From NCBI GenBank assembly GCA_047600425.1, contig JASGLC010000003.1:5155832-5219831 (forward strand): a DNA stretch of 64,000 nt, given 5' to 3'. Below are positions 6,926 to 62,441 of this stretch, in pieces. Below the pieces are notes generated by a model that was given only the letters and a program-made list of their open reading frames with translations, ran no database searches and had not been told where the DNA came from. Position 1 is the stretch's first letter. Each line of letters begins with the position of its first letter. The translations under genes were made by a program, and so were the position numbers. Source of the DNA: Kofleriaceae bacterium. GTDB lineage: Bacteria; Myxococcota_A; Polyangia; Haliangiales; Haliangiaceae.

Positions 6926-8344
6926 TCACGGACGCAGCGAGCGATAGAGCTGCACGTACTCGTGCGCAGACGCGGTCCACGACGAGTCTCGCTGCATCGC
7001 TCGCCGACGTGTGGCTGCATCGCCAACGAGAGCCAACGCGCGTTCGATCGCGTGCAGCAGCGCGGCGCTCGTCGGCTCGTCGAAGCGAATCCCGGTTTCG
7101 GGATCGCTGACGGTGTCGCGCAGACCGCCGACGGCGTGAACGATCGGCAGCGTTCCGTATCGCATCGCGTACAGCTGACCGAGCCCGCACGGTTCGAACC
7201 GCGATGGCATCGCGAACAGATCGCTGCCCGCGTAGATCCGGCGCGACAGATTCAGATCGAAGCCGATCCGGACGGCGACGTGCTCGCGAAAGTTCTCCGC
7301 GAGCCAGCGAAACCGATCTTCGAGCGCGGGCTCACCGGAGCCGAGCACGATCAGCTTCGCTTTCATTCGCGCGAGCTCCGGCACGATGTCGGCGACGAGA
7401 TCGATGCCCTTCTGATCTGTCATGCGCGCGATCACGCCGATGATCACGCCATCTGCGAGATCCATTTCCGTGAGGAGCGCCGCGCGACACGCCGCCTTGC
7501 CGCTCGGATCGGCCGCCGAGTAATTCGCCGCGAGCGCTTTGTCGGTCGCGGGATTCCACTCTTGGACATCGATGCCGTTCACGATCCCGACGAGTCGACG
7601 CACGTCCCAGCGCAGGAACGCATCGAGTGCTTCGCCGCGTTCGGGCGTGAGGATCTCGCGCGCGTAGGTGGGACTGACCGTGGTCACCGCATCGGATGCG
7701 GCGAGCCCGCCTTTCAACAGGCACACCTGATCGTAGAACTCGAGGTGGTGCATGTCGAAGTACGACCACGGGATGCCGAGGTCGTTCATGGTCTGCTTCG
7801 GGAAGATGCCGCGATAGGCGAGGTTGTGGATCGTCGAGACGATCGCGTACGGCGCATTGGCGACGCGCGCGTAGATCGCCGCCGGTGCGCCCTGCCAATC
7901 GTGCGCGTGCAACACGTCGAACGGATCGCGCGCGGTGCCGCCGACGAGGCGCCAGCTCTCGGTGATCGCGGCTTGCGCGAGCGCGGCGAACCGCAGGTGG
8001 TTATCGCTGAACTCGCCGGCGCCACCTGGTCCGTACAACGTGCCATCGCGATCGAACAGCGGCGGACAATCGACGAAGCCGTATGCGACGCGACCGACCC
8101 GCGCCATCCGCAGATGCGCATCCCAGCGATGCGGCCCGACGTGGATCGTGATCGCGGCGCCTTCGGTCAACGCGATGCCGCGCGCGGCGAGCTTTGGGGC
8201 GACTCCGCGATAGAGCGGAATCACCACCGCGACATCGAGCCCGTGATCCTGCGCGAGCGCGTTCGGCAGGCCGGCGACGACATCGGCGAGCCCACCGGAT
8301 TGTGCGAACGGTGCGGCTTCGCTCGCGACGTGAACGACTCGCAT
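6926..8344 (-). CDS. glgA: Glycogen synthase (ADP-glucose type).
   Basis: MRVVHVASEAAPFAQSGGLADVVAGLP is the classic GlgA N-terminus (KxGGL). GT-B fold, 472 aa. Lies immediately downstream of glgC. Confidence 0.9.
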   Translation of the reverse strand: MRVVHVASEAAPFAQSGGLADVVAGLPNALAQDHGLDVAVVIPLYRGVAPKLAARGIALTEGAAITIHVGPHRWDAHLRMARVGRVAYGFVDCPPLFDRDGTLYGPGGAGEFSDNHLRFAALAQAAITESWRLVGGTARDPFDVLHAHDWQGAPAAIYARVANAPYAIVSTIHNLAYRGIFPKQTMNDLGIPWSYFDMHHLEFYDQVCLLKGGLAASDAVTTVSPTYAREILTPERGEALDAFLRWDVRRLVGIVNGIDVQEWNPATDKALAANYSAADPSGKAACRAALLTEMDLADGVIIGVIARMTDQKGIDLVADIVPELARMKAKLIVLGSGEPALEDRFRWLAENFREHVAVRIGFDLNLSRRIYAGSDLFAMPSRFEPCGLGQLYAMRYGTLPIVHAVGGLRDTVSDPETGIRFDEPTSAALLHAIERALALVGDAATRRRAMQRDSSWTASAHEYVQLYRSLRP

Positions 8345-8358
8345 CGCGATCGGTTGTA

Positions 8359-9747
8359 TCAGTCGCCCGCGTACTTCTTGAAGCGCGGACCGGCAGACTC
8401 GTAGCTGTGCCGGCTCTGTTGCGACACCACGAACGATCCCGCATTGAGCTTTTCGGATAGCTCTGGATCGGCGTGGAGCATTTCGGCGACGTCGCTCGCG
8501 AGCACGGGGGGGCCCTTCGCCGGCACCGTGGTGCCTTTCGGAATCACGACGATGCCGGAGTCCGTGACGAACGGGAACCGGATCGCGTCGTACGCCGGAT
8601 CGTCACCGATCACGCAGCCCGGCTCGATCTTGACGTTCTTGTCGAGGATCACGCGCTTCAACCGAACGCCACGACCGATGTCGCAGCCCGAGAGGATCAG
8701 CGATTGATCGACGACCGCGCCGGCGTGGACGAAGCAGTCGTAGCCGAGCACGGTGTCGCGCACCGCGGCTGACGCGATGATCGAGCCCTCGCAGATCAAG
8801 CTGTCGTCGATTTCGCAGGCCGGCGCGCCTTCACCTGCACGCACGAACCGGGCAGGCGGGTAGTCGCGTTGCGCGCTGCGGATCCGCCACGAGCGGTTAT
8901 AGAGATCGAGCGCCGGCACGCGCGCGCGAAGCTCCATGTTCGCGGCGAAGTACGAGTCGATCGTCCCGACATCGCGCCAGTACGGTTCCATGCCTTCGGC
9001 TTCACCGGGCACCTTGTTCTGCGCGAAGTCGTACACGAACACGCGCGCGCCATCCGCGACGAGCTTCGGGATGATGTCGCGACCGAAGTCGTGACGCGTG
9101 GCCTTGCCCGTCGCGCCCGAAACCAACACGCGCTCGAGCACTTCGCGCTTGAAGAAGTAGTTGCCCATCGACACGAGCGACCAGCCCGGCCGACCCGGAA
9201 TCTCCGGTGGAACTTTCGGTTTCTCGACGAAGTTCGTGATCCGCCCGGCGACATCGACGTCGATGATCCCGAACGCGCTCGCCTCCGACGACGGCACCGG
9301 ATACGCGGCGACCGTCAGATCCGCATTGCGCGCGCGATGGGTGTCTTCCATCTGATCCGCGGCGAACTTGTAGATGTGATCGCCGCCGAAGATCGCGACG
9401 TGCTCGGCGCGCGAATCGCGAACCAAGTTGAGGTTCTGGAACACGGCGTCGGCGGTGCCGCGGTACCAGAAGTCGCCGATGCGCATCTGCGCCGGCACCA
9501 CTTCGATAAACTCGCCGAAGCCCGAGAGCCGCCAGTTGCGCGACAGGTGCTTGATCAGGCTCGACGCCATGTACTGCGTGAGCACGTAGATCCGGCGGTA
9601 CCCGGAATTGACCATGTTCGAGAGGACGAAATCGACGATGCGATAACGCCCGGCGAACGGAACGCCCGGCTTGCTGCGGTGGATCGTCAGCGGGCCGAGG
9701 CGGGAACCTTTGCCGCCGGCCATGATCATCACGAGGGTGTCCTTCAC
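8359..9747 (-). CDS. glgC: Glucose-1-phosphate adenylyltransferase.
   Basis: MIMAGGKGSRLGPLT...RYRIVDFVLSNMVNSG is the GlgC signature. Left-handed beta-helix C-terminal region plus a ~40-aa tail. 14-nt gap to glgA. Confidence 0.9.
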   Translation of the reverse strand: MKDTLVMIMAGGKGSRLGPLTIHRSKPGVPFAGRYRIVDFVLSNMVNSGYRRIYVLTQYMASSLIKHLSRNWRLSGFGEFIEVVPAQMRIGDFWYRGTADAVFQNLNLVRDSRAEHVAIFGGDHIYKFAADQMEDTHRARNADLTVAAYPVPSSEASAFGIIDVDVAGRITNFVEKPKVPPEIPGRPGWSLVSMGNYFFKREVLERVLVSGATGKATRHDFGRDIIPKLVADGARVFVYDFAQNKVPGEAEGMEPYWRDVGTIDSYFAANMELRARVPALDLYNRSWRIRSAQRDYPPARFVRAGEGAPACEIDDSLICEGSIIASAAVRDTVLGYDCFVHAGAVVDQSLILSGCDIGRGVRLKRVILDKNVKIEPGCVIGDDPAYDAIRFPFVTDSGIVVIPKGTTVPAKGPPVLASDVAEMLHADPELSEKLNAGSFVVSQQSRHSYESAGPRFKKYAGD

Positions 9748-9776
9748 GGCTCACCCATATTTTACCGCGCGAAGGT

Positions 9777-11403
9777 CTACTTGGCGCAAGCGCGACCGAA
9801 GATCGTCGATGACGATGTCGATGCGACCGCTTTACACGTGTACGACGTCGGGCAGCCCGTATCACCAGCGCACGCCGCCGTGCACTTCTTCCCCGAATTG
9901 CCCATCGTCACGCACAGGTTGCCCGGGCCACCGCAATCGGTGTTCGTGGAGCACTTCTTCCCGAAGTTGGCGGTGGTCGCGAACGGGTGCAGGTGCGGGT
10001 CTTCATCGATGCCGTGAATGCCGTACATCGTGTGGAACGTGGCATCGCTCGCCGCGGCATCGAGCTTGGTCAGAAGCTTCATGATGTTCTGCGGCCGCAT
10101 CCGATCCTGCGAGTCGTGCGCGAGGATGTGCGAGATGAAGTCTTCGGTGATGATCGCGGTCGCCGCGTTCGAGAACGACATCGAGGTGATGACGTCGACG
10201 TTGTGACCGGCCTTGTGCGGGTTTTCCTGGAGCGCTTCGCCGATCTGATACGTCTCGCAACCTTCCGCGAGGACGACCTGATACTTGTCGGCGAGGTCGG
10301 CGGTGCGCATGTCGCTGTCGTCGAAGTCGCCTTCGTTGGTCTTGTTCCAGTTCGCCATCGAGAAGCCGTAGAACGGACCCGCGTGACCGTCGAAGATCAC
10401 GACGTCGCGCTTCTTCATCGACTCGCGAAGGTCAGCTTCGAGGACCTTGCCGCCGGCATCGGTCTCGGTGTCGTTCTCCGCACCGGGCTTGCCGAAGAAG
10501 ATCCGGACATCGATCTCGACGTCTTTACCATTCGCGTCGAGGTGGCGAACGAACGGCCCACTCGTGTGCGTGAGCTTTTCCCACGAGCTGACCGGCGGCG
10601 TGAAGCCCTGGTCCTTCAACCAGCCGAACAGAATCCTTCGAATGCTTGAGGTGGAAATTGTCGTGATAGTCCCAGCCGAAGTGGACGTCGATGTCGAGCA
10701 CGCCGTCGGAGACGAGCTTGTTCGTGTCGAAGAACGCGTCTTGCGACACGTGCGTGTCGGGCGCGATCGTGAACGTCATCGTCTCCTTCTTCGCGGCGTC
10801 GACCTTCGACGGATCCCACGCGTCCCACGGCGCCTGGCGGTACCACTCCTCGTCGGTGACGAGGTGGCTCATCTCGTCGTTCGTGGGCTTGCCGACTTCG
10901 AGGTCGAACGTCGACTTGCCGCCGACCGTCTTCACCTTGAGCTTGCTCATCAAGTTCTTCGGCCCAGCCGCGAGCTGCTTGAACGTGAACGTATAGGTCA
11001 GGCCGTCGGCGCCTTGGGTGACCGCGAGGTCGGTCCACATGCCGCCCTTCGCCATGCCGCCGAAGCCACCGAAGTGGAAGTTCGCGTCTTCATCCTCTTT
11101 GTCGACGAAGTACTGGGTGACGAACCAGGCGATCGCGATCTGCTTGTAGCCGATCAGCTTCTTCACGGCGGCCATCTTGTCGGCGTCGGACTTCGTCGCG
11201 TAGCTCGCGTCCAACGTGACCGAGGACTTGCCCTCGAGCGTGTATTCGATCGCGTTCGCCGACAGGAAGTTGTCCTCCTTGCCCTCGTCGACCGCGACCG
11301 CGTCGTCCGGATCGTCGCCCACGGCATCGGGGCTCGTGCACCCCACCAACGACGACAACACGACAAAGCCAAGCAAACGCATGATGCGTCGCGCGTAGAG
11401 CAA
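9777..11403 (-). pseudogene. Secreted lipoprotein split by an apparent single-nucleotide frameshift near 10600-10620 (pseudogene or assembly error). Cys-rich C-terminal tail.
   Basis: ORF 10525..11403 has a lipoprotein signal (MRLLGFVVLSSLVGC) and protein-like sequence up to ...HFGWDYHDNFHLKHSKDSVRL, then degenerates (VEGPGLHAAGQLVGK...). The +1 frame over the same bases reads protein-like (LKDQGFTPPVSSWEKLTHTSGPFVRHLDANGKD...) and continues as ORF 9777..10619 with no proper start (TTG only). The two ORFs overlap by 95 nt. The C-terminus is KKCSTNTDCGGPGNLC...KKCTAACAGDTGCPTSYTCK. Confidence 0.55.
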
Positions 11404-36575: not shown

Positions 36576-39500
36576 CTAAGCCCTGGAACGTTCGACAGTT
36601 ACGTCGTGGTCGTTGTGCGACGTGCCATGGACGCCCGAGATGATCTGATCGACCAACTCCTCGGGAACGCGGACATGGGCGTGCGAATCGCGCAGGCTGA
36701 CCGACCCGATCCGCCCGGTGTCACCACCGATCGGACCCGCGAGCAGCGAGCGGAGATCGTCCGCCGACACGCCGTGCTTCTTGCCGAGTGACACGAACAG
36801 GCGCGCCTGGCTGCCGTCACCGGCCGCCGCGGGCGTCACGATCGTGTCGCGCTTGCCGCGGCCCTCGGACTTCGCCTCGGACTTCTTGTCGGACTTGTCC
36901 GTGGCTTTGTCCGCCGACTTCTCCGAGCGATCCGACTTCTCCGACTTCTTGTCGTCGCGACCCTTCTTGCCACCGCGATCACGGCCGCGGTCTTTACCGC
37001 CACGACCGCCACGGCTCGAGCGCTTGGTCTCGCCCTCGTCCGCGTCATCATCGGCGGCGGCTTCGACCGGCGCTTCGGCTTTCGCTTCCGCCTTGGGCGC
37101 GGGCGCAGGTGCTTCGGCCTTCGTCGACTTGTTGTCGGCCCAGGTCTCCCAGAACTCGCGCGTTGCTTCGGTCGGCTCGCTGCGCTTCTTGTCGCGCTTG
37201 CGATCGCCACCACGCTCGAGTGCGCGCGCCGCGACGTCATCGACCTTCGTCGCGGTCTGCGACGTATCGGTCAACGTTTCGGCCAACGCCGGCGATCCCG
37301 CGGTCACGGTCTCGGTCGCTGCAGCGACTTCGCTGCCGCGCTCGGCGCGCTCGCCACGATCGTTACGATCGCTGCGGTCACGGTCGCGGTCACGGCCGCG
37401 ATCACGGTCACGGCCACGGTCGCGGTCGAAGCGACGCTCGCCACGATCGCCGCGATCGCCACGGTCGCGATCGAACGAACGCTCGCCACGGTTCTCGGTC
37501 GACGCCGGCGCTTCGGCCGTCGTGTCGGTCACCGGGGCAGGGGACTCGGCCGAGGCGACGACTTCCGTCATCGTCGTATCGACGACCGGAATCGTGTCGT
37601 TGCGCTCGTGCCGATCACGACGCTCGCCGCGATCCCGATCGAACCGACGGCCGCGATCACCGCGATCCCGGTCGAACGACCGCTCGCCACGATCGCCTTC
37701 GGGACGATCGCTGCGCTCACCACGCTCGCCACGCTCGCCGCGATCACGATCGAAGCGACGCTCGCCACGATCGCCTTCGGGACGGTCACCGCGTTCGCCA
37801 CGGTCGCGATCGAAGCGCGGACGGTCGCCGCCTTCGGTGCGCTCGCCGCGGTCACGGCCACGGTCGCGGTCGAACGAACGCTCGCCGCGCTCGCCACCTT
37901 CAGTGCGCTCGCCACGGTCACGGCCACGGTCGCGATCGAACGAACGCTCGCCGCGGTCACCGCCAGCGCCGCCTTCCGGACGGTCGCCGCGCTCACCACG
38001 CTCGCCACGGTCGCGATCGAAACGCGGACGATCACCACGGTCGCCGCGATCGAACGACCGCTCGCCGCGCTCGCCGTCCGGACGCTCACCGCGTTCGCCA
38101 CGCTCACCGCGCTCGCCGCCGCGGTCGCGATCGAACCGGCTGCCGCCGCGATCACGATCGAAGCGACCTCCACGGTCACCGCGATCGAACGACCGCTCGC
38201 CGCGCTCGCCGCCTTCGCCGCGCTCTTCATCACGCTCGCGACGCGGGCGCGGGCCCTGCGTACGCGTGGTGATCGCGTTGAGCTTCTCCGCAACGAGCTG
38301 CGCGAGCACGCGCTTGCCGTTGCTGGTGCGCAGCAGCTTCTCGAAGATCTGCGCCTCGAGGTCGCTCGCCGTGCCGGTGACACCACGGATCAGGATCTGG
38401 ACCGGGTCCGGCGGGGTCGGCGTGCCGATCGGCGGCAGCGCTACCTTGAGCTTGCCCTCGAAGATGTCGTCCTTCGGGATCGACCGCTCTTCCGGCTTGA
38501 TGCCGAACTGGAGGCGGATGAACCGGAAGTTGCCGAGCTCGCGCGGGCCGACCATCGAGATGGCGGTGCCCTTCTTACCGGCGCGACCCGTACGACCCGT
38601 ACGGTGCACGTACACCTCGGGCGACTCCGGCACCGAGAAGTTGATCACGTGCGAGAGGTTCGAGATGTCGATGCCGCGCGCCGCGACGTCCGTGGCGCAC
38701 AGGAAGCGAAGGTTCTTCGCCTTCATCCGGCCCATGACGCGTTCGCGATCCGCTTGCGACAGGTCGCTCGACAGCGGCTCCGCGTCGAGGCCTTGCTTCT
38801 TCAAGAACCGCGCGACCATGTTGGTCTCGTCGCGCATGTTGCAGAAGATGATCGCGCTCTCCGGGTTTTCCGCGAAGATGATCTTCAGGAGGTCGCGGCT
38901 GCGCGCGATACCGCTGACGATGTAGTACGCGTGGTGGATGTCCGAGACCGTCTGGCTGTCACGCGACAGCGAGAGGTTCTCGGCACCCTTCATGTGGCGC
39001 TTCGCGTAGCGCTCGACTTCGACGGGCATCGTCGCCGAGAACAGCAGCGTCTGATGCTTCTCGGGCAGGAACGACGTGACGCGCTCGATGTCCTCGAGGA
39101 AACCCATCGAGAGCATCTCGTCGCATTCGTCGAGGACGAACGTCTGGATCGTCTTGCAGTCGAGCGTGCGGCGACCGATGTGGTCGAGCACGCGGCCCGG
39201 CGTACCGACGATGATGTGGACGCCGTCCTTGAGCGCGTTGATCTGCTTACCGATCGGCGCGCCGCCGTACACGGCTTCGATGATCACGCCGCGGTGCTTG
39301 CCGAGCTGCGTGAGCTCGCGCGCGACCTGGAGTGCGAGCTCGCGGGTCGGGCACAGGATCAGTGCTTGCGGCTGGCGAACCGCCGGGACGATCCGGTTGA
39401 CGAGCGGTAGACCGAACGCGGTGGTCTTGCCGGTACCGGTACGAGATTGGACGAGAAGATCTTTGCCTTCGCTGACCGGCGTGAACACGGCCTTCTGCAC

Positions 39501-39716
39501 CGGCGTCGGCGCGAAGTAGCCCATGTCATCGAGCGCGGCCTTCACATCTTGGTGAAGTCCCGGCAGATCATCGAAGCTCGGGGGCTTTTCGGCCGCCGGT
39601 TCCTCTGCCGTTTCAGCAGTGGCTTCGATCGGAGAGTCGGTCGTGATCGCTGCGATCAGCGCAGCATCGGTCTCTTGCGCCGAACCATTCTCGGTCGGCG
39701 TCGTTCCATTTGTCAT
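36576..39716 (-). CDS. DEAD-box ATP-dependent RNA helicase with a long RG/RD/RE-rich repetitive insert and C-terminal DbpA-type RNA-binding domain.
   Basis: Q-motif and motif I (GYFAPTPVQ...SRTGTGKTAAF). DEAD (VLDECDEM), SAT, HRTGRTGRAG. ~450 aa of RGERSFDRDRGRDRGERTEGG-type repeats. The C-terminus RLFVSLGKKHGVSADDLRSLLAG...GRIGSVSLRDSHAHVRVPEELVDQI is a DbpA/DeaD RBD. Confidence 0.9.
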   Translation of the reverse strand: MTNGTTPTENGSAQETDAALIAAITTDSPIEATAETAEEPAAEKPPSFDDLPGLHQDVKAALDDMGYFAPTPVQKAVFTPVSEGKDLLVQSRTGTGKTTAFGLPLVNRIVPAVRQPQALILCPTRELALQVARELTQLGKHRGVIIEAVYGGAPIGKQINALKDGVHIIVGTPGRVLDHIGRRTLDCKTIQTFVLDECDEMLSMGFLEDIERVTSFLPEKHQTLLFSATMPVEVERYAKRHMKGAENLSLSRDSQTVSDIHHAYYIVSGIARSRDLLKIIFAENPESAIIFCNMRDETNMVARFLKKQGLDAEPLSSDLSQADRERVMGRMKAKNLRFLCATDVAARGIDISNLSHVINFSVPESPEVYVHRTGRTGRAGKKGTAISMVGPRELGNFRFIRLQFGIKPEERSIPKDDIFEGKLKVALPPIGTPTPPDPVQILIRGVTGTASDLEAQIFEKLLRTSNGKRVLAQLVAEKLNAITTRTQGPRPRRERDEERGEGGERGERSFDRGDRGGRFDRDRGGSRFDRDRGGERGERGERGERPDGERGERSFDRGDRGDRPRFDRDRGERGERGDRPEGGAGGDRGERSFDRDRGRDRGERTEGGERGERSFDRDRGRDRGERTEGGDRPRFDRDRGERGDRPEGDRGERRFDRDRGERGERGERSDRPEGDRGERSFDRDRGDRGRRFDRDRGERRDRHERNDTIPVVDTTMTEVVASAESPAPVTDTTAEAPASTENRGERSFDRDRGDRGDRGERRFDRDRGRDRDRGRDRDRDRSDRNDRGERAERGSEVAAATETVTAGSPALAETLTDTSQTATKVDDVAARALERGGDRKRDKKRSEPTEATREFWETWADNKSTKAEAPAPAPKAEAKAEAPVEAAADDDADEGETKRSSRGGRGGKDRGRDRGGKKGRDDKKSEKSDRSEKSADKATDKSDKKSEAKSEGRGKRDTIVTPAAAGDGSQARLFVSLGKKHGVSADDLRSLLAGPIGGDTGRIGSVSLRDSHAHVRVPEELVDQIISGVHGTSHNDHDVTVERSRA
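36980..38270 (-). repeat. Intragenic tandem codon repeats encoding the RGERSFDRDRG(D/E)RGE... low-complexity region of the helicase.
   Basis: Repeated cgatcgaa(c/g)cgacg(c/g)tcgcc... units are visible at the DNA level. They generate long spurious antisense ORFs (36718..38925+, 36788..38272+). Confidence 0.8.
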
Positions 39717-46843: not shown

Positions 46844-46915
<72 letters not shown>

Positions 46916-46929
46916 CAAGCAGTTAGCGT

Positions 46930-48231
46930 ATGATGGAGCGAGTGCAGCGGCTCGCGTTGGTGGTCTGTTTACTGACCGCATGTCGATTCGCACCGGGGGA
47001 GACCGGTGGCGGCGACGACGACGGTTCTGGCAGCGATGCCGGGATCGACGGTGGTAGCGGCTCGGGCTCGAACGGCTCGAACGACGCGCCGACCTGCGGC
47101 AATCCCGGCTCGGTCCGCGACGACTTCAACGGCACCGTGATCGCGGACCAGTGGTACCAGTACAACCTGCGCGGCACGGTCAGCGAGACCAACCAGGCGC
47201 TGAGCATCACGCCGATCAACAACGACATGATGAACCGGTTCACCGGGGTCGAGAGCAAGAACGCGTTCGACATGCGGCGCGGGCAGGTCACCGTCGAGAT
47301 CACGCAGATGGTCGACAACTCGATGAAGGTCAGCGCCGGCCTCTACCTCGCGACGCCGACGGAGATCGCGTCGTTGGTCTACGCGCAAGGCATGGTGCAG
47401 GGCACCGTCGGCACGGCCAAGACCACGCCCGTCGCGTACGACGCCACGATGATGAAGTGGTGGCGGATCTCGAATGATGGCTCGCTGCTCCACTTCTGGA
47501 CATCGCCGGATGGCGTGACGTTTAACGAGCTCGGCGCGGGATTTCCCGTCGATTTTTCGATCGTCCACGTGTTCCTCGGCGGCAACTCGAGCCAGGACGG
47601 CAACGTTCACGGCACCGTGACGTTCGACAGCCTGAACCTCGACACGCCGGCGACGCCCTGGTGCAAGAGCCACACGTTCGTCGATCCGTTCATGCGCACG
47701 ACGGTCGGCGACAACTGGTACGCGATCGCCGGCGGCATGGGGCCGATGGGCTGCACGCCGACGGTGTCCGCGACCGGCGCGCAGTTCGCGACCCACGACA
47801 TGGCCGCGCGGTGCTGGCTGCAGACCGAAGAGGGCTTCGATCTGTCGAGTGATTACGTCACCGTCGATGTTCCGGCGATCGCGACACTGCCGACCAACTT
47901 CCAGGTGTTCCTGCGCGTGGTGTCTGACACCACGGCGAACGCGTTCCAGATCTACTTCCTCAACAATTTCGTGTGCGGGCAGCTCCAGTCGCTCGCGGTC
48001 GGATGCACGAGCTACGACTCGTCGAAGATGGAGTATTGGCGGATCGGGGAGAACAACCACACGCTGGCGTTCGAGACGAGCCCCGACAAGGTCACCTGGA
48101 CGAAGGTCATGCCCGACGCGACCGAGACCTCAGCGTTTTCGGTGAATTCGGTCCACGTCGAGATCGGCGTCGACGCGCCCACGAACAGCGACTTCACCCA
48201 GACGGTTAGCGGCTACAACACGGCCTTTTAG
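46930..48231 (+). CDS. Secreted lipoprotein with internally duplicated ~170-aa domain.
   Basis: Signal MMERVQRLALVVCLLTAC, followed by Gly/Ser/Asp linker. Two homologous halves (...MMKWWRISNDGSLLHFWTSPDGVTFNEL... and ...MEYWRIGENNHTLAFETSPDKVTWTKV...). No family recognised. Confidence 0.6.
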   Translation: MMERVQRLALVVCLLTACRFAPGETGGGDDDGSGSDAGIDGGSGSGSNGSNDAPTCGNPGSVRDDFNGTVIADQWYQYNLRGTVSETNQALSITPINNDMMNRFTGVESKNAFDMRRGQVTVEITQMVDNSMKVSAGLYLATPTEIASLVYAQGMVQGTVGTAKTTPVAYDATMMKWWRISNDGSLLHFWTSPDGVTFNELGAGFPVDFSIVHVFLGGNSSQDGNVHGTVTFDSLNLDTPATPWCKSHTFVDPFMRTTVGDNWYAIAGGMGPMGCTPTVSATGAQFATHDMAARCWLQTEEGFDLSSDYVTVDVPAIATLPTNFQVFLRVVSDTTANAFQIYFLNNFVCGQLQSLAVGCTSYDSSKMEYWRIGENNHTLAFETSPDKVTWTKVMPDATETSAFSVNSVHVEIGVDAPTNSDFTQTVSGYNTAF

Positions 48232-48320
48232 GGGTTCCACGAGACATCGGGGCCTGCATGTTGTACAAACACGCCCTGAATCAGGTCTCAGGAGATCCGC
48301 AGAAGCATGGTTTACGCACA

Positions 48321-49076
48321 ATGAATGGTCGGCCGCCGGGTGGTCGCTTTGGTGACCGCCGCCGCCCAGACCAGGGCCTACGCATTAACAATCGAATTCG
48401 CGTCCCCGAAGTTCGAGTGATTGCCGAGGAAGAACAGCTCGGCATCTTGCCCACCCACGAAGCGTTGCGCCTCGCGGAAGAACGCGGCTTGGATCTCGTC
48501 GAGATCAGCCCGCGTGCATTCCCGCCGGTGTGCCGGATCATGGACTACGGCAAGTACAAGTACGAGGAAGCGAAGAAGAAGCAGCAGGCTCGCAAACGCG
48601 CTTCTACCGTCGAGACCAAAGAGATCAAGTTCCGTCCGAAGACGGAAGAACACGACATGGCTTTCAAGGTGAAGCATGTCCGACGCTTCCTCGAGGCCGG
48701 CAACAAGGTGCGCTTGGCCGTCGTGTTCCGTGGTCGCGAGATCACGCACCCGCAGACCGGTATGAACGTGCTCAATCGCATCGTCGAGATGTGCACGGAC
48801 ATCGCCACGGTCGAGGCGACGCCGAACATGGAAGGCCGGCGCATGATCATGGTGATCGCGCCGAAGCCGGGTGTCGTGCGGAAGGCGCAGGAAGCCAAGA
48901 AGGCTCAGGCCGCCGCGCAGCAGGCGCTCGAAGCGCAGAAGAAGAACGCTCCGCCGGGTCAGAAGGCGCCGCCGCCGCCGGAGGATGACGACGACGATCT
49001 CGACGAAGACGAGATCAACGCGGACGTCGACGATGATGATGACGACGCGGACGGCGAAGATCAGCCGCAGGCGTAA
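48321..49076 (+). CDS. infC: Translation initiation factor IF-3 with acidic C-terminal extension (Dsg-like).
   Basis: RINNRIRVPEVRVIAEEEQLGI...LVEISPRAFPPVCRIMDYGKYKYE...EIKFRP...AVVFRGREITHPQTGMNVL aligns with E. coli IF3. ~85 extra C-terminal residues rich in K/A/Q then poly-D/E. Start chosen at ATG 48321 (MNGRPPGG). The ORF track begins 21 codons earlier. IF3 starts are often non-canonical. Confidence 0.85.
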   Translation: MNGRPPGGRFGDRRRPDQGLRINNRIRVPEVRVIAEEEQLGILPTHEALRLAEERGLDLVEISPRAFPPVCRIMDYGKYKYEEAKKKQQARKRASTVETKEIKFRPKTEEHDMAFKVKHVRRFLEAGNKVRLAVVFRGREITHPQTGMNVLNRIVEMCTDIATVEATPNMEGRRMIMVIAPKPGVVRKAQEAKKAQAAAQQALEAQKKNAPPGQKAPPPPEDDDDDLDEDEINADVDDDDDDADGEDQPQA

Positions 49077-49176
49077 GTCTGCGATTGCTGGTCGATCGCG
49101 TTCGAGATTCTGACGAAATCACTTGTCAGGTGGCGTGCCCTCGGGCATAAGGACCACCCGTTTAAGCGGTGTAGCT

Positions 49177-49374
49177 ATGCCCAAGGTCAAGACTCATTCC
49201 GGTGCTAAAAAGCGGTTCAAGAAGACCGCTTCCGGCAAGTTCAAGTTCTCGCGCGTGTTCAAGCGTCACCTCTTGACCGGCCGTAGCAAGAAGCGGAAGC
49301 GCCAGCTCCGCAACGCGTCCTACGTCCCGGCCGCGCACCACCACCAGATCGATATCCTGCTTCCGTACGCCTAA
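49177..49374 (+). CDS. rpmI: 50S ribosomal protein L35.
   Basis: [33 protein letters not shown]. 65 aa. Confidence 0.9.
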
Positions 49375-49385
49375 AGGAACGAAGT

Positions 49386-49724
49386 ATGCCTCGCGCAAAA
49401 CGTGGATTTAAAGCTCGTCGTCGCCGGAACCGCCTGCTCAAGTGGGCCAAGGGTTTCCGCGGCAAGCGTTCTTCGGCGCATGCGGTCGCGAACGAAGCGG
49501 TGCAGCACGCGTGGCTGCACATGTACGACTCGCGCAAGCAGCGCAAGCGGGACTTCCGTGCACTCTGGATCCAGCGCATCAACGCCGCGGCGCGTGCGCA
49601 TGGCATCAGCTACTCGAAGCTGATCGGTGCGCTCAACAAGGCGTCGATCGGTCTCAACCGCAAGATGCTCGCCGAGATCGCGATCAGCGACCCGGTGGCG
49701 TTTAAGGCGATCGTCAGCGCGTAG
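49386..49724 (+). CDS. rplT: 50S ribosomal protein L20.
   Basis: MPRAKRGFKARRRRNRLLKWAKGFRGKRS. AAAGGAA RBS. 112 aa. Confidence 0.95.
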   Translation: MPRAKRGFKARRRRNRLLKWAKGFRGKRSSAHAVANEAVQHAWLHMYDSRKQRKRDFRALWIQRINAAARAHGISYSKLIGALNKASIGLNRKMLAEIAISDPVAFKAIVSA

Positions 49725-49747
49725 CCTGCCGATTTGATCTTTCTTGA

Positions 49748-49778
49748 ACGGCGGCTTCGCGAGGAGCCGCCGTTTTTG
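49748..49778 (+). terminator. Rho-independent terminator or attenuator between rplT and pheS.
   Basis: ACGGCGGCT-tcgcgagg-AGCCGCCGT stem followed by TTTTTG. 15 nt before the pheS ATG. Confidence 0.55.
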
Positions 49779-49792
49779 CGTTTGGAGCATTC

Positions 49793-50814
49793 ATGTCTGA
49801 GCTGATCTCGAATCTCGAAAAGCTAGGCGACGAATTCGGCGCCGTGATCGCACCACTCGCCGACGAACAGGCGATCCGCGCCGCGCAGGCGCAGTTCCTC
49901 GGCAAGAAGGGCAAAGTCTCGGAGCTCATGAAGGAGCTGTCGAAGCTGCCTCCCGCGGATCGTCCCGCGGCCGGTGCGGCGGCGAATAAGGTGAAGACCG
50001 CGATCGAGCAACTGACCGATGCGCGCTTGAAGGAGCTCTCCGACGCGGTCGCCGCGAAGGATCTCCAGCGCGTCGTCGACATCACGTTGCCGGCACAGCC
50101 GATCGCCGGTGGCCACCTCCATATCCTCACGCAGGTGCGGATGGAGATGACCCAGATCTTCGCCGAGCTCGGCTTCGTCGTCGCGGAAGGTCCGCAAATC
50201 GAGACCGACTGGAACACGTTCGAAGCGCTCGCGATCCCGAAGGATCATCCCGCGCGCGACATGCAGGACACGTTCTACATCTCGAACGACATCGTGTTGC
50301 GCACGCACACGTCGCCGGTCCAGGTCCGGACGATGCTCACGCAGGAGCCGCCGATCCGGATCATCGCGCCGGGGCACGTCTACCGTCGCGATGACGATCT
50401 CACGCACTCGCCGATGTTCACGCAGCTCGAGGGGCTCGTCGTCGACACCGACGTGTCGTTCGGCGATCTCAAGGGCACGCTGCTCCACTTCGTGAAGCGG
50501 TTCTTCCAGCGCGATCTCGACGTCCGGTTGCGGCCGAGCTACTTCCCGTTCGTCGAGCCGGGCGCCGAAGTCGATATGCAGTGCAGCTTCTGCGGCGGCT
50601 CGGGCTGCCGCGTGTGCAAGCACACCGGCTGGGTCGAGATCGGTGGCTCGGGCATGGTCGATCCCGAAGTGTTCCAACACTGCCGGATCGATCCCGAGCG
50701 CTACACCGGCTTCGCGTTCGGCATGGGCATCGAGCGCATGGCGATGCTCAAGCACAACATCAACGACATCAAGTTCTACTACGAAGGTGATCTCCGCTTC
50801 GGGGAGCAGTTCTG

Positions 50815-50815
<1 letters not shown>
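49793..50815 (+). CDS. pheS: Phenylalanine--tRNA ligase alpha subunit.
   Basis: Class II motifs. ...FPFVEPGAEVDMQC...GWVEIGGSGMVDPEVF...FAFGMGIERMAML. 340 aa. Confidence 0.95.
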
Positions 50816-53252
<2,437 letters not shown>

Positions 53253-53256
<4 letters not shown>

Positions 53257-57727: not shown

Positions 57728-57751
57728 TTCCTGGATCTCCTGAAACGGACT

Positions 57752-58354
57752 ATGCTCCGTTTCGGTGAACCTACCACAAACGGAGCGCGTTCCGGTTTGA
57801 CCCGATCGGACGCTACCCGCAACCGCGGTCAACTGCTCGCCGTCGCTACGCGGGCGTTCGCGTCGGCCAAAGCCGAGCCGTCGATGCGCGAGATCGCGCG
57901 CCGTGCGAAGGTCGGTATCGGCACGCTCTATCGTCACTTTCCGACGAAAGAATCACTCGTCGATGCCGTCTACCAAGATCAGGTCGTGCGCCTCACGACC
58001 GGTGCAACCAAGCTGCTCGCCACGCATCCGCCGTCCGTGGCGATGCGGCGCTGGATGGACCTGTTCGGTGACTGGATCGCGACGAAGAACGGCATGCTCG
58101 ACACGCTGCTCGCGATGATCGATGCCGGCGAGATCGAGCACGGCGACACCCGCGGCGAGTTACTCGCGGCGATCACCACGATCCTCGATGCGGGCCGCGC
58201 GAAGAAGCAGCTACGCCGCGACACGTCGGCCGAAGATATCGCCGCGAGCCTGATCGGCATCTTCACGGTCGCGCCGAAGCCTCAGCGCAAAGCGCTCGCG
58301 AAACGCCTGCTCGATCTATTGATGGACGGTCTTCGGACAGCGCCAAAACGCTAA
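57752..58354 (+). CDS. TetR-family transcriptional regulator (divergent from the oxidoreductase).
   Basis: Start at ATG 57752. HTH LLAVATRAFASAKAEPSMREIARRAKVGIGTLYRHFPTKESL. 200 aa. 24-bp divergent intergenic region. Confidence 0.8.
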   Translation: MLRFGEPTTNGARSGLTRSDATRNRGQLLAVATRAFASAKAEPSMREIARRAKVGIGTLYRHFPTKESLVDAVYQDQVVRLTTGATKLLATHPPSVAMRRWMDLFGDWIATKNGMLDTLLAMIDAGEIEHGDTRGELLAAITTILDAGRAKKQLRRDTSAEDIAASLIGIFTVAPKPQRKALAKRLLDLLMDGLRTAPKR

Positions 58355-58364
58355 GAGTGTCGGA

Positions 58365-59230
58365 CCGACGTTCGAATTGTTAGTAACGCGCTGATCGTAC
58401 GACCCGATCTGAGTTGTCGTTCGAATTGTTAGCAACGTGCTGATCGCACGACCCGATCTGAGTTGTCGTTCGAATTGTTAGTAACGCGCTGATCGTACGA
58501 CCCGATCTGAGTTGTCGTTCGAATTGTTAGTAACGCGCTGATCGTACGACCCGATCTGAGTTGTCGTTCGAATTGTTAGTAACGCGCTGAACACACGACC
58601 CGAGTTGTCGTTCGAATTGTTGGTAACGCGCTGAGCGCTGACCTTCCGGGGCCTTCGCACGTGGGCGTTAGTAACAATTCGAGCGCGTCTTCCGGCGGGG
58701 CCTTTGGGCGTTACGAACAATTCGAACAGCACCACCGGGAAGGTGGCCGCGATCGGGCGTTACGAACAATTCGAACGCGTCTCCGGTGGGGCCTTCGCAC
58801 GTGGGCGTTACTAACAATTCGAACGCGTCTTCCGGCGGCCTTTTGGCTTCTTCGAACGTGTCTTCGGCTTTCGCACGTGGGCGTTACGAACAATTCGAAC
58901 GGGTCTTCCGCGAGGCCTTCGGACGTGGGCGTTACTAACAATTCGAACGTGTCTTCGGCTTTCGCAGGTGGGCGTTACTAACAATTCGAACGCGTCTTCC
59001 GGCGGGGCCTTTGGGCGTTACGAACAATTCGAACGGCACCACCGGGAAGGTGGCCGCGATCGGGCGTTACGAACAATTCGAACGCGTCTTCCGGCGGGGC
59101 CTTCGCACGTGGGGCGTTAGTAACAATTCGAACGCGTCTTCCGGCGGGGCCTTCGCACGTGGGCGTTACGAACAATTCGAACGCGTCTTCCGGCGAGGCC
59201 TTTGGGCGTTACGAACAATTCGAACGGGAA
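58365..59230. repeat. Non-coding bipartite tandem-repeat array: six ~49-nt units containing the core GTTCGAATTGTT(A/C)GTAACGC, then twelve ~43-52-nt units containing its reverse complement GCGTTA(C/G)(G/T)AACAATTCGAAC.
   Basis: Left block 58368-58640: units at 58371, 58420, 58469, 58518, 58567, 58611, each with a GATCG...CGATC hairpin-capable linker. Right block 58660-59229: cores at ~58666, 58709, 58757, 58805, 58880, 58929, 58973, 59016, 59065, 59115, 59164, 59207. These are separated by a few recurring GC-rich linkers (gcgtcttccggcggggcctttggg, agcaccaccgggaaggtggccgcgatcggg, gcgtct(t)ccgg(c/t)ggggccttcgcacgtggg). The ORFs predicted across it are frame artefacts of the repeat. Confidence 0.9.
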
Positions 59231-59297
59231 AGGCATCTGTCCGAATCTCGGACGCGGTGCGGACGACAGTGTCAGAGTGCAAGCGTAGCGATAGAGC

Positions 59298-60038
59298 ATG
59301 TTTTATCGCGACAAGAAGTTCACGCGGATCGGAAATAGCGTCGCGCTGATCATCGACCGCGCCATGTTGGCGGAGTGCAACATCAGAACCGACGAGATGG
59401 TTCGCATCAGGTCCGATGGGTTTCAGATGGTGATCGAGCAAGTGCCCGAGGGTGAGTTTGATCCGGCGGCGGCGTCTGATCTGGCGTGGGACATCAAGAA
59501 GAATGCGTTTCGAAAGACGTGGGACGTTGTCGGCCCCTCCGTCGAGAGAGCGGACCTGATCGCGCTAGGTTCCGCGACGACGGCGTCGAATCGCTTCTGG
59601 ATGTTTAGGCACGCTGTGGAGCGTGCGAAGACCGCGGTTCCGGAGCTCGAGCTCGTGATGGATCGACTCGAGTACTTGCGTGCGTATGTGGAGGAGCTCG
59701 GATGGGAAGAGGCCATGAAGAAAGCGATCGAAATCGTTCCCGATCGGTTCGGCATCTCGTTGCCTGTCACGCGTCGTGAAGTGCCAGCCGTAGCGCCCGC
59801 AGTCGCGCCGCTTCGCCCGACGATTTACGACAGGTTCTTCGGCCCCGACGACGGCAAACCCGACCCTGACCTGCTTACCGACGAACAGATCCAAGCCGAT
59901 GAGCCAACGGAAGCCGAACAGAAAGCCGAGGCCGAGTGGCAGGCGCACCTCGCTAGGTGCGAGGCGGCGCGGCTAGCCGCCAGAGCCAGTGCGGACGCAA
60001 TGGATGGCCGACCGGAATGTTCGGATGATCGAAGTTAG
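59298..60038 (+). CDS. AbrB/MazE (SpoVT-AbrB swapped-hairpin) DNA-binding-domain protein with long C-terminal extension. Atypically low GC.
   Basis: MFYRDKKFTRIGNSVALIIDRAMLAECNI matches the MazE/AbrB motif (K.t+iGNS.av.iP). ~190 further residues ending in an acidic, Ala-rich tail. Codon usage is rich in A/T-ending codons, unlike its neighbours. Its 3' end overlaps the convergent GNAT gene by 86 nt. Confidence 0.55.
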   Translation: MFYRDKKFTRIGNSVALIIDRAMLAECNIRTDEMVRIRSDGFQMVIEQVPEGEFDPAAASDLAWDIKKNAFRKTWDVVGPSVERADLIALGSATTASNRFWMFRHAVERAKTAVPELELVMDRLEYLRAYVEELGWEEAMKKAIEIVPDRFGISLPVTRREVPAVAPAVAPLRPTIYDRFFGPDDGKPDPDLLTDEQIQADEPTEAEQKAEAEWQAHLARCEAARLAARASADAMDGRPECSDDRS

Positions 60039-60480
60039 CGCTCGGATCGCGCACCATGCCGATGCGCTCCATCACGCGCTGTGACGGGATGTTCGTCGGG
60101 ACCGTGAAGCTCACGATCTCGGGCAACTTCAACTGCGTGAACCCGTAGTCGAGCGCGGCGCGCGCTGCTTCGGTCGCGTAGCCGTGACCCCAGCCGACCT
60201 TCGCGAGCCGCCAACCGATCTCGACATCCGAGCGGAACTTCGGCGGCTGTAGGCCAACGAAGCCGATGAACGGGACGCCGTCCTTCACCTCGACCGCCCA
60301 CAAGCCCCAGCCACGTTCGGCGAGCTCGGCCTTCATCCGACGCGCGAGCGATTCGGCTTCGACGTAGGACAGCTTCGCGGCGAAGTAGCGCATCACGTCG
60401 TCGTCCGCACACATCGCCGCGAACGTCGGGATGTCCTCCTCGCGCCAATCGCGTAGCAGCAGCCGGGCCGTCTCGATCAC
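59953..60480 (-). CDS. GNAT-family N-acetyltransferase (RimJ/RimL-like).
   Basis: [28 protein letters not shown]...IGFVGLQ...[28 protein letters not shown]. 175 aa. ATG overlaps the thrS stop (ATGA). Confidence 0.8.
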
Positions 60481-62441
60481 GCCATATCCGGCGGCGTCGC
60501 TTCGCGATCGAGGCGCGCGGCAAAGTCCGCGAACGACATCACCTCGAGCTTTTGCTGCTCGCCGCCACCGAACGTGCGGATGCTGACCTGATCCGAGGCG
60601 GCTTCCTTGTCACCGATCACGATCGTGTACGGGATCTTCTGGAGTGACGCATCGCGGATCTTGGCCTTCATCATCGCGTTGCCGTCGTCGAACACCGTGC
60701 GAATGCCGGCCGCTTCGAGCCGCGCTTGGACCGTGCGCGCGTGATCGTTCACGCGATCGGTGACCGTGACGATCGCGACCTGGACCGGCGCGAGCCAGAC
60801 CGGGAACGCGCCGGCGAAGTGCTCGATCAGGATCGCGATGAACCGCTCGAACGATCCGTAGATCGCGCGGTGAAGCACGACGGGGCGGTGATTCTTGCCG
60901 TCTTCACCGACGTAGGTGAGATCGAAGCGCTCCGGCGCCGCGTAGTCGAGCTGGATCGTGCCGAGCTGCCACTTGCGACCGATCGAATCCGAGACATCGA
61001 AGTCGATCTTCGGACCGTAGAACGCGCCGTCACCGGGCTTGAGCTCGTACGCGAGGCCGAGACCGTCGAGCGCCGCCTTGAGCGCACCTTCCGCACGGTC
61101 CCACATCGCATCGTCGCCGAGGCGGTTCGCAGGACGCGTCGCGAACTTCGCCGTGTATTTGAGGCCGACCGCGTTGTAGACGTGATCGAGCAGCGTGACG
61201 AACCGCTTCACCTCGTCGGCGATCTGATCTTCGCGCGCGTAGATGTGCGCGTCGTCTTGCGCGAACTGGCGCACGCGCGTGAGCCCACCCAGCGCACCGG
61301 CCGCCTCGTTGCGATGCAGCACGTCTTGCGTGTGCAGGCGCATCGGCAAGTCGCGATACGACTGCTTCTTGAAGCCGTAATAGAGGTGGTGCGAGGGGCA
61401 GTTCATCGGCTTCAGCGAGAAGTGATGCGGGTCTTCGTCACCGGCCGCCTTCGCTTCGCTGTCCTCGACGAGGAACATGTTTTCTTTGTACTTGCCCCAG
61501 TGACCACTGATCTCCCAGAGACCCTTGTTGTAGAGCAGCGGCGTCTTGATCTCGACGTAGCCGTGCGACAGCGCGAGCTTGCGCATGTACGACGACAACA
61601 CCGTGTAGATCGCCGTGCCTTTCGGCGTCCAGAACGCGGCGCCCGGCGAGAACTGATGGAAGTGGAACAGGTCGAGCTCTTTGCCGAGCCGGCGGTGGTC
61701 GCGCTTCTCCGCTTCTTCGCGCTGCTTCGTCCACGCGTCGAGCTGCTTCTTGTCGAAGAATGCGGTGCCGTAGATGCGCTGCAGCGTCTTGTTCTTGGAA
61801 TCGCCGCGCCAGTACGCCGCCGACGACGACAAGATCTTGATCACGCCGACCTTGCCCGTCGACGGACCGTGGGGCCCGAGACAGAAGTCGACCCAATCAC
61901 CGTGGCTGTACAGCGTGAGCGTCTTCGCTCCCTTGGCGACGATGTCGTTGATGATCTCGACCTTGAACTTCTCGCCCTTTTGATCGAACAGCTTGATCGC
62001 GTCGTCGACGGAGACTTCCGTGCGCTTGAACGGCAGGTCTTCGGCGATGATCTTGTTCGCGAGCGCTTCGATCTGACCGAGCTCGTCCTCGGTGAACGGC
62101 TTGCCGCGATCGAAGTCGTAGTAGAAGCCGTTCTCGATCGACGGACCGATCGTCACCTGCGTGCCGGGGAACAACCGCTGGACCGCATCCGCGACGATGT
62201 GCGCCGCGTCGTGCCGGATCGTGTCGAGCGCTTCGGGCTGCTTCGCCGTGACGATCTCGAGCTTCGCGTCGTGGTCGAGCTTGCGTTCGAGATCGACCTC
62301 TTCGCCATCGACCTTTGCAATGACCGCCGCCTTCGCCAGGCCGGGGCCGATGGCCGTCTTCACGAACTCCGCGATCGTCGTGCCCGGCGGCGTGCTCTTG
62401 GTGCTGCCGTCGGGGAGGGTGACCGTAATGTCTGCGCTCAC
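60477..62441 (-). CDS. thrS: Threonine--tRNA ligase.
   Basis: TGS N-terminus ([12 protein letters not shown]...). Editing domain. Class II core ([13 protein letters not shown]...FWTPKG). Anticodon-binding C-terminus. 654 aa. Confidence 0.95.

Follow-up and report, generated by a model that had tools for sequence, protein, structure and literature searches.

The stretch of DNA analysed here, called the window throughout, covers 64 kb of a Kofleriaceae bacterium (contig JASGLC010000003.1) and reads as ordinary chromosome, with glgA, glgC, uvrA, efp, msrB, a gene for a DEAD-box helicase, the infC-rpmI-rplT-pheS-pheT group, thrS, ihfA and two tRNA genes. Pfam scans of ~45 predicted proteins from across it found no cas, par, rep, transposase or integrase gene in these 64 kb. 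Near one end, 943 bp of intergenic DNA lie between the stop codon of a gene for a TetR-type regulator (ending at 58354) and the next ATG (59298), that of a gene for a MazE/AbrB-like protein, and the gap is filled by an array of repeats. A preliminary description, made from the sequence alone, had counted 18 cores there, six forward and twelve reverse, and this count holds: across 58370-59225 there are 18 copies of GTTCGAATTGTT-NN-TAACGC, of which the + strand carries six and the - strand twelve. When the window was scanned with GTTCGAATTGTTNGTAACGC at up to three mismatches, exactly 18 sites were found, all within this interval, against a mean of 0.03 matches in dinucleotide-preserving shuffles of the sequence. 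The locus is a lineage-specific, non-coding minisatellite made up of two convergent tandem arrays. Its architecture is rare and has no second example in the data searched; it is unusual in that two convergent blocks, an identical core and linkers that are equally long yet unrelated are combined on a chromosome.

The two blocks, here termed A and B, are built in different ways (Table 1). In block A, a core followed by the linker gctGATCGtacgaccCGATCtgagttgtc is repeated six times in units of 49 nt, one of which is shortened to 44 nt, and Tandem Repeats Finder (TRF) run on 58369-58634 reports a period of 49 nt with 5.5 copies, 93% matches and a score of 448. The GATCG-N7-CGATC motif that had been described for this linker is present. 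In block B, the start-to-start spacings of the cores are 43, 49, 48, 76, 48, 43, 43, 49, 50, 49 and 43 nt, and TRF on 58662-59226 reports periods of 43, 49 and 191 nt (the period of 43 with a score of 380). Its linkers fall into a few recurring types, namely the L, S and T variants, which contain CACGTG, and the H type. One segment of block B is present twice (58650-58791 and 58957-59098) at 94% identity, from which it follows that the array grows by duplication of blocks of several units. The outer ends of the whole array form a perfect 12-nt terminal inverted repeat, GTTCGAATTGTT...AACAATTCGAAC. The GC content of the array is 0.51-0.59, compared with ~0.65 for the window, and it shows no codon-position periodicity in GC, whereas the flanking genes all have a third-position GC content of 0.72-0.87. 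As neither of the periods of 49 and 43 nt is a multiple of three, no reading frame is held. The anatomy and the non-coding character of this architecture, both put forward in the preliminary description, are thereby confirmed, as is its view that the array is not a CRISPR. The array shares with CRISPRs the regular spacing of short repeats; however, the conserved part is just 20-24 nt long, the would-be spacers recur in three to five types that are indel variants of one another, and there are neither cas genes nor a leader.

Table 1. Features of the array and its surroundings (window coordinates)
Feature	Position	Strand	Description	Basis
Block A	58370-58629	+	Six cores, GTTCGAATTGTT(A/G)G(T/C)AACG(C/T)	TRF, core scan
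Block A core starts	58370, 58419, 58468, 58517, 58566, 58610	+		Unit listing
Inter-block junction	58630-58664		35 nt; start resembles A-type linker (GCTGA), end resembles L-type linker on + strand (..CCTTCGCACGTGG)	
Block B	58665-59225	-	Twelve cores	Core scan, unit listing
Block B core 5' ends on - strand	59225, 59182, 59133, 59083, 59034, 58991, 58948, 58900, 58824, 58776, 58727, 58684	-		
L linker	In block B	-	ccacgtgcgaaggccccgccggaagacgc (read on - strand), 28-30 nt	
S and T linkers	In block B		23 nt; L variants with 6-nt deletions	
H linker	In block B	-	ccgatcgcggCCACCttcccGGTGGtgcc (read on - strand), 29 nt; contains CCACC-gggaa-GGTGG	
Decayed remnant of a thirteenth core	58851-58857	-	TTCGAAC; in 56-nt linker (76-nt spacing)	
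MazE/AbrB-like gene	59298-60038	+	246 aa; identical to NCBI protein QM831_41910	
Conserved upstream element of the MazE-like family	59239-59291	+	GTCCGAATCTCGGAC (59239-59253), TGTCAG (59270-59275), GTAGCGA (59285-59291)	
TetR/AcrR gene	57752-58354	+	SbtR-like C-terminal domain; ATG at 57752 gives the NCBI protein of 200 aa; in-frame TTG at 57797 is an alternative start	
Two palindromes between divergent alcohol dehydrogenase and TetR genes	57742-57798		AAACGGA-N6-TCCGTTT type; GAAACGGA-N6-TCCGTTTC (57742-57763) and AAACGGA-N6-TCCGGTTT (57778-57798)	
Accessory segment	53257-60508		7.25 kb, between pheT and thrS; missing in L111	

Conservation within the units is selective. Between blocks A and B, the cores are 94% identical and the linkers 49% identical, a value to be set against 46 +/- 6% for shuffled linkers, and the cores within block B share 96.5% identity, the linkers 67%. 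No change is seen at fourteen of the 20 core positions, and a single substitution at each of four more, among them 2, 15 and 20; the common variation is found at position 13 (A in ten copies, C in seven and G in one) and position 14 (G in 16 copies and C in two). One flanking base on each side is also conserved, and alignment of the units, which had been proposed as a means of defining a consensus, gives C-GTTCGAATTGTT-NN-TAACGC-N-C. The repeat itself was therefore correctly recognised at the outset, whilst the core size of 22 nt given then is replaced by a conserved footprint of 23-24 nt. All three linker classes, A, H and L, have a length of exactly 29 nt, which results in a 49-bp unit, and match one another in pairwise comparison at just 11-13 of 29 positions (P = 0.07-0.12 for each pair). 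The unit length of 49 bp, then, is conserved as the core is: either the linkers may have diverged to saturation with the cores held constant, or the spacing itself may be constrained. Taken as a whole, the contrast between core and linker points to a constraint on a double-stranded recognition motif placed at a set spacing.

A pattern of this kind has also to be weighed against an origin without function, in which a short inverted repeat or palindrome was amplified by slippage or unequal crossing-over, each arm taking its own flank with it, so that the locus would be a neutral variable-number tandem repeat (VNTR) and the uniformity of the core would reflect recent amplification and concerted evolution. 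The near-identity of the block A units over their whole length, the duplication of several units in block B and the TRF period of 191 nt do speak for recent amplification, and one unit is already decaying; moreover, neither a binder, nor conservation elsewhere, nor associated genes were found, and the array lies in an accessory segment that is missing from the nearest relative. Mycobacterial interspersed repetitive units (MIRUs) and related VNTRs are intergenic tandem repeats of 40-100 bp without proven function that gain and lose units, and the present array, being intergenic and tandem with TRF periods of 49 and 43 nt, falls within that size class. MIRUs, however, occupy many loci and are homogeneous along the unit, whereas this array is a single locus with two opposed blocks and an invariant core set among unrelated linkers. 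Descent of all units from one 49-bp ancestor would mean that their linkers drifted apart to a random level of identity and the cores kept 94-100%; linkers without common ancestry would have had to arrive at exactly 29 nt three times independently, an unlikely coincidence. Homogenisation of the core only is also hard to explain, as RecA-dependent conversion usually needs a minimal substrate longer than the 20-24 bp over which identity extends here. A functionless origin is for these reasons judged unlikely, though it is to be taken seriously as the main rival to the reading favoured here.

It had further been suggested that the array might be a large structured RNA. Such an element would be transcribed by read-through from the TetR gene, or divergently from the promoter of the MazE-like gene, and would act either through a long interrupted hairpin, as an insulator or a substrate of RNase III, or as a protein-sponging repeat RNA resembling type III antitoxins or CsrB. 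The whole region of 886 nt, taken as a single strand, does fold as a long interrupted hairpin (-411 kcal/mol, z = -6.8) in which block A cores pair with block B cores, but this follows automatically from the inverted arrangement, and single units are no more stable than their shuffled counterparts (z of about 0, ranging from -1.1 to +0.6). A small hairpin can be drawn within the core (GCGTT/AACGC plus CGAA/TTCG); the common A/C variants at positions 13-14 break its inner stem (CGAA/TTCG), and positions 4-5 never compensate. Because the core variants are uncompensated and single units fold like shuffled sequence, a conserved hairpin in either RNA or single-stranded DNA is not supported. Extrusion of a cruciform, also proposed earlier for the two blocks as a giant imperfect inverted repeat, appears unlikely as well, given that just the 20-bp cores are complementary and these are split by non-complementary linkers of 23-29 nt. 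Rfam, searched with the whole window at gathering thresholds and with the array at E <= 10, returned two tRNAs and noise only, and a promoter and terminator scan found no promoter-like site and terminator-like sites at chance level. Readings of the unit as an extracytoplasmic function (ECF), sigma-54 or sigma-70 promoter were rejected by eye, the would-be -10 element (CGTAAC) not being conserved between units. The TetR gene, the array and the next gene lie on the same strand without a convincing terminator between them, and block A, with its 5.5 tandem copies upstream of a gene, bears a superficial likeness to ToxI. In contrast to a ToxIN system, however, the downstream open reading frame (ORF) is MazE-like, is not a ToxN/AbiQ-type toxin and has no PADLOC match, there is no terminator, twelve inverted units stand between block A and the ORF, and the homologues of the ORF lack arrays. 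A role at the RNA level is accordingly held to be very improbable.

The preliminary description had left open whether the core is unique or multicopy. Neither the core at up to three mismatches, nor its 12- to 14-mers, nor any linker has a further copy in the window, and blastn in distant mode of the array against plasmids and phages gave no match. Among 185,579 species-representative genomes the exact core had no match, and contigs from viruses and metagenomes gave single matches only. Twenty marine phage-like contigs of ~40% GC (L001-L015, L017-L019, L021 and L022, where L numbers denote loci fetched for comparison) share one ATG-initial stretch, atggcagaaag..ggtggGTTCGAATTGTTCGTAACGCtg, that contains the exact 20-mer core, a coincidence unrelated to the array. 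The two remaining single matches are one within an ABC-permease gene (L016) and an isolated one (L020). A search for a pattern of two cores found as its sole match a coding repeat in a giant-virus contig. TRF, run over 123 fetched loci (1.86 Mb), revealed no comparable bacterial non-coding array, and the bacterial arrays in those loci with a period of at least 30 nt and at least four copies all have periods that are multiples of three. Neither the closest ThrS locus (L023, 72% identity) nor the colinear relative L111 has the array. Exact-protein look-ups of five window proteins found no sister strain. In the literature, a search for the core string led to an unrelated primer only, and keyword searches to no comparable case.

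These searches bear directly on whether the array could be a relic of mobile DNA, either a foldback or miniature element composed of two repetitive terminal inverted repeats with transposase sites, like the ends of Tn7, Mu or IS21, or a mosaic of the kind formed by repetitive extragenic palindromic sequences (REPs). REPs form hairpins, alternate in orientation, occur in hundreds of dispersed copies and are associated with a RAYT gene; bacterial interspersed mosaic elements (BIMEs) are mosaics of them in enterobacteria. The array resembles these in its short conserved motif, its few recurring linkers and its extragenic position just after the 3' end of a gene, and the perfect 12-nt repeat at its outer ends would suit a transposable origin, as would the insertion sequence (IS) elements found upstream of homologous MazE-like genes (DDE_3/IS630-like in L103, IS21 IstB in L109). 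On the other hand, no other copy of the core, of part of it or of a linker exists in the remaining 63 kb or in related loci, there is no target-site duplication at the array ends, and no transposase (Y1 transposases included), RAYT or integrase gene was found in the window. Within a block, moreover, all motifs run in the same direction and do not alternate, and the hairpin lacks conservation. A mobile origin is thus very doubtful. An artefact of assembly, that is, a mis-assembled or chimeric repeat such as might come from a foldback read, is more improbable still and deserves hardly any weight. The source is a metagenome-assembled genome (MAG), in which the number of tandem copies can be mis-estimated. 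A foldback chimera, however, would yield an exact inverted copy, and block B is not the reverse complement of block A, since only the cores match and the linkers differ; the units carry distinct variants in a non-trivial order, and the contig of 6.26 Mb suggests a long-read assembly able to span 870 bp.

The array stands in an accessory part of the chromosome. The IhfA protein is identical in many relatives, of which L111 is the closest, and L111 is colinear with the window at 79-83% nucleotide identity in two stretches (window 48287-53256 with L111 2034-7106, and 60509-63742 with 7143-10432). The segment between them, missing from L111, holds a hypothetical gene, genes for DUF4419, TfoX_N, an ECF sigma factor, YCII, an alcohol dehydrogenase (ADH) and TetR, the array, the MazE-like gene and a GNAT gene. 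The proposal that the module was horizontally acquired is therefore borne out at least in that it is accessory; no direct or att-like repeats were found at the ends of the segment. No match was obtained from PADLOC for seven proteins (those of the hypothetical gene, DUF4419, TfoX, TetR, GNAT, the MazE-like ORF and the ORF at 46930-48231), nor from PHROGs for the MazE-like ORF, the hypothetical gene and DUF4419. The ORF at 46930-48231 (433 aa) has no Pfam match and one weak PHROG match to a family of unknown function; it directly follows tRNA-Val (46844-46916) and lies in a second segment that is missing from L111 (46964-48286). In both the window and L111, thrS (60477-62441) is inverted between pheT and ihfA, whereas in most other relatives (L113-L116 and L118) it stands upstream of infC on the same strand, and its placement appears, from this comparison, to be a local rearrangement of the classical thrS-infC-rpmI-rplT-pheST-ihfA cluster. 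Elsewhere in the window, the DEAD-box helicase/DbpA gene (36576-39716, 1046 aa) contains in-frame tandem repeats at 37374-38162, with periods of 6, 12, 18, 27, 39, 42, 66 and 78, which look like a low-complexity coding insert.

The gene downstream of the array had been assigned to the AbrB/MazE type. The assignment stands at the level of the family and fails for the window protein alone, which matches no Pfam family even at E <= 10 and whose best single-sequence match in the PDB has E = 0.22. A full HMMER scan yielded 13 distant relatives of ~150 aa, eight of which match PF04014 (MazE_antitoxin; best E = 7.6e-5), and a profile of the family matches MazE/AbrB chains in the PDB (7d2n at 1.7e-4 and MazE at 0.009). 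A single-sequence AlphaFold2 model was unusable, with a predicted local distance difference test score (pLDDT) of 47, and an alignment-based model (pLDDT 71) gave MazE chains 1ub4, 2mru and 1mvf as its top Foldseek matches over the first ~50 residues, with probabilities of 0.93-0.96. The N-terminal MazE/AbrB-type domain is followed by a helical domain without known relative, which carries the motif MDRLEYLR here and MDRLEHVR in homologues and for which the same Foldseek search gave no fold match. The gene had also been called low in GC, and it is lower than its neighbours, though mildly so (~0.61 against ~0.64-0.69). The next gene is a convergent one for a RimJ/RimL-type GNAT, no cognate toxin gene lies directly downstream, and the homologues are solitary, so that the gene does not form a type II MazEF-like module. 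At their 3' ends, the MazE-like ORF and the GNAT gene share 86 nt (59953-60038); the last ~95 residues of the MazE-like protein are unique to this genome and have a weaker coding signal, and its true stop codon or C-terminus may differ.

This family has an upstream element of its own. In all eight homologue loci (L103-L110), ~75 nt before the start codon are conserved and contain GTCCG-N5-CGGAC, then TGTCAG and then GTAnCGA; the palindrome is situated ~45-60 nt before the start codon, and the homologous proteins are merely ~25% identical to that of the window. The stretches compared were 59226-59297 of the window, 3600-3681 of L103, 5920-6000 of L106 and 2526-2606 of L109. The ~75-nt stretch is probably the promoter/operator module of this small uncharacterised family, and in the window its element begins 13 nt past block B and lies outside the array. 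GTCCG-N5-CGGAC has seven exact copies in the window as against 0.53 expected, including copies at 27539 and 34170. Between glgA and a Sel1-repeat gene convergent with it, four exact copies and one near copy form an intergenic cluster at 6828-6933 (spacings of 22, 21, 32 and 16 nt), which may be a second target of the MazE-like regulator. The 446-bp intergenic region upstream of the cluster includes an AT-richer stretch (6560-6740) that could be regulatory or encode a small RNA; within it lie an 11-nt inverted repeat (6647-6657 paired with 6715-6725) and, in inverted orientation, two 9-mers close to the DnaA box (6654-6662, 6721-6729). In L103, which is from another Kofleriaceae MAG, copies of an IS630-like terminal inverted repeat, GTAATTACGGTTATTAC, are found at 2553-2577, 3363-3379 and 3553-3569, and the 1.1 kb that precede the MazE-like homologue are filled by these and a (GACCAC)n microsatellite, with DDE_3 present; in L109, IS21 genes (IstB) occupy the same upstream position. 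The upstream side of this gene family thus seems, from the loci compared, prone to gaining repetitive or mobile DNA.

The gene on the other side of the array encodes a TetR-type protein and always has as its divergent partner a gene for a zinc-type ADH or a quinone oxidoreductase. Homologues with 75-84% identity to the protein are widespread in Actinobacteria and Myxococcota, which suggests that the pair is a widely transferred two-gene module. Both palindromes between the divergent genes are kept in the distant locus L120 (~2445-2540), one of them over 23 identical nucleotides, where the surrounding intergenic DNA differs and no array lies downstream of the TetR gene. They are probable TetR operators, unrelated to the core of the array.

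Each regulator thus has conserved cis-elements of its own, separate from the array, and this bears on the proposal that the repeats came in as one module with the neighbouring gene and are bound by its product, the MazE/AbrB-like protein, or else by TetR. The proposal draws on the proximity of block B to the conserved element of the MazE-like gene, on the DNA-binding N-terminal domain recognised in the family, and on the accessory segment of slightly lower GC that array and gene share; AbrB-fold proteins such as MraZ are, moreover, known to bind arrays of direct repeats. Against this, the palindrome common to the eight MazE-like loci is a different motif with a cluster of its own in the window, and most probably, judging from its conservation, GTCCG-N5-CGGAC and not the array core is the cognate site of the MazE-like family. 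TRF detected no comparable array in homologue loci L103, L106 and L109; L104, L105, L107, L108 and L110 cover the same homologues and were not scanned separately. TetR, for its part, has its two putative operators and the array-free L120, and its close homologues are widely distributed. Both neighbours, named as candidate binders in the preliminary description, are poor candidates on this evidence, and binding by either is quite unlikely.

The same description had compared the array with plasmid iterons and centromeres. Plasmid iteron arrays such as P1 incA/incC and F incB/incC consist of sites of 17-22 bp with unconserved spacers, may form two orientation groups, stand beside the gene for a DNA-binding protein, and function through multi-site loading, titration and handcuffing. 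The array resembles them in its 18 repeated sites of 20-24 nt, its two orientation groups and its position beside such a gene. It differs in that the window has no Rep initiator gene, the neighbours being TetR and the MazE/AbrB-like protein; that there is no AT-rich unwinding element (the minimum GC of the array is 0.51), nor any match to TTATCCACA, the DnaA box, at up to one mismatch within 50 kb of the array; and that it is chromosomal, with a spacing of 43-49 bp as against ~21-33 bp and an adjacent regulator that appears to recognise another motif. The F-plasmid centromere sopC has twelve 43-bp tandem repeats, each with a short inverted repeat bound by SopB, and block B likewise comprises twelve units in tandem, 43-49 bp in length, in each of which there is a single short conserved motif of a size suited to a protein. 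Unlike sopC, the array has an asymmetric core, a second, opposed block and heterogeneous spacing, and unlike sopC, parS and parC it is accompanied by no ParA, ParB, ParM, TubZ or SopA/SopB-type gene in the window. The ordered core and recurring linkers suit a protein-binding array of the iteron or centromere kind better than a structured RNA, whilst the plasmid partition and replication genes that it would call for are missing from the window. Polar fork barriers (Tus-Ter, RTP-Ter, RTS1 of Schizosaccharomyces pombe and the Sal-box arrays of rDNA) have oriented binding sites in two opposed groups, and in Bacillus subtilis the binder is encoded directly downstream of its two inverted Ter sites. 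The array has two opposed, convergent groups of six + and twelve - sites; it differs in its far higher copy number and strictly tandem layout, and Pfam scans of the window found no Tus or RTP family. GC skew is flat across the 64 kb, with no switch seen and no evidence of a terminus. CRISPRs, type III antitoxin arrays, REPs/BIMEs, iteron origins and partition centromeres each have at least one defining feature that the array lacks, and it is classed with none of them.

The reading favoured here, held tentatively and a little short of calling it probable, is that of an iteron-like array whose many sites dock a sequence-specific DNA-binding protein, itself encoded elsewhere, in two opposed orientations, and whose effect is titration or the formation of a barrier or insulator. 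Each 49-bp unit (43 bp in the deletion variants) would present one AT-rich bipartite motif, C-GTTCGAATTGTT-NN-TAACGC-NC, in a chromosome of 65% GC, and the array would work at the level of double-stranded DNA as a platform for at least 18 copies of the protein. The asymmetric motif would load the protein in one orientation on block A and in the opposite orientation on block B, and a large nucleoprotein complex would be built up, of the kind formed on polar terminator arrays, on centromeres such as sopC and on the iteron and incompatibility arrays of plasmids. Its factor could thereby be titrated, or the complex could separate the TetR-ADH module from the MazE-like gene as an insulator or roadblock.

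Several observations weigh against this docking array. No gene in the window suggests a binder for it. A 26-column motif model, applied to 392 kb (the window plus 330 kb of related loci) at E <= 10, finds only the 18 known sites, and so there is no regulon or autoregulatory site that would point to a gene; nor was a homologous array found in any collection searched (representative genomes, viral and metagenome contigs, plasmids and phages). The spacing in block B is irregular, at 43 to 50 nt or ~4.1 to 4.8 helical turns, which argues against strict cooperative binding on the same face of the helix. Block A units are ~88-96% identical throughout, which marks the block as young, and this likeness of whole units, along with the 94% duplication in block B, means that part of the identity of the cores is due to recent common descent. 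Finally, a hand count from the alignment gives the L/S/T linkers ~8 substitution events per 29 nt and the core ~4 per 20 nt, so that the density in these linkers is just moderately above that of the core.

A decidedly improbable variant would see in the array a chromosomal 'polar wall' or 'sponge', in which convergent, oriented sites of high affinity load a dedicated protein. The complex would then be a compact trap for replication or transcription forks, or a decoy that titrates the initiator, repressor or terminase of a plasmid or phage, as an array-type system of defence or incompatibility on an accessory island. The conserved length of the 49-bp unit, the strict orientation within each block and the lack of a cognate gene nearby are compatible with this variant.

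What the locus means depends on which of these readings is correct. If it is a neutral minisatellite, it would serve as a strain marker and as an example of how a selection-like pattern, with an invariant core and divergent linkers, can arise without function. The MazE/AbrB-domain family, with its own palindrome and a second cluster of it in the window, is maybe the more tractable lead. If the core is the recognition site of a protein, as in the docking array favoured here, the locus would be an unusually clean chromosomal multi-site array, with 18 near-perfect sites, two polarities and a fixed 49-bp unit, from the poorly studied myxobacterial family Kofleriaceae. It would then provide a ready bait for identifying a DNA-binding protein, and would allow chromosomal arrays to be tested as titration devices, insulators or polar barriers outside plasmids.

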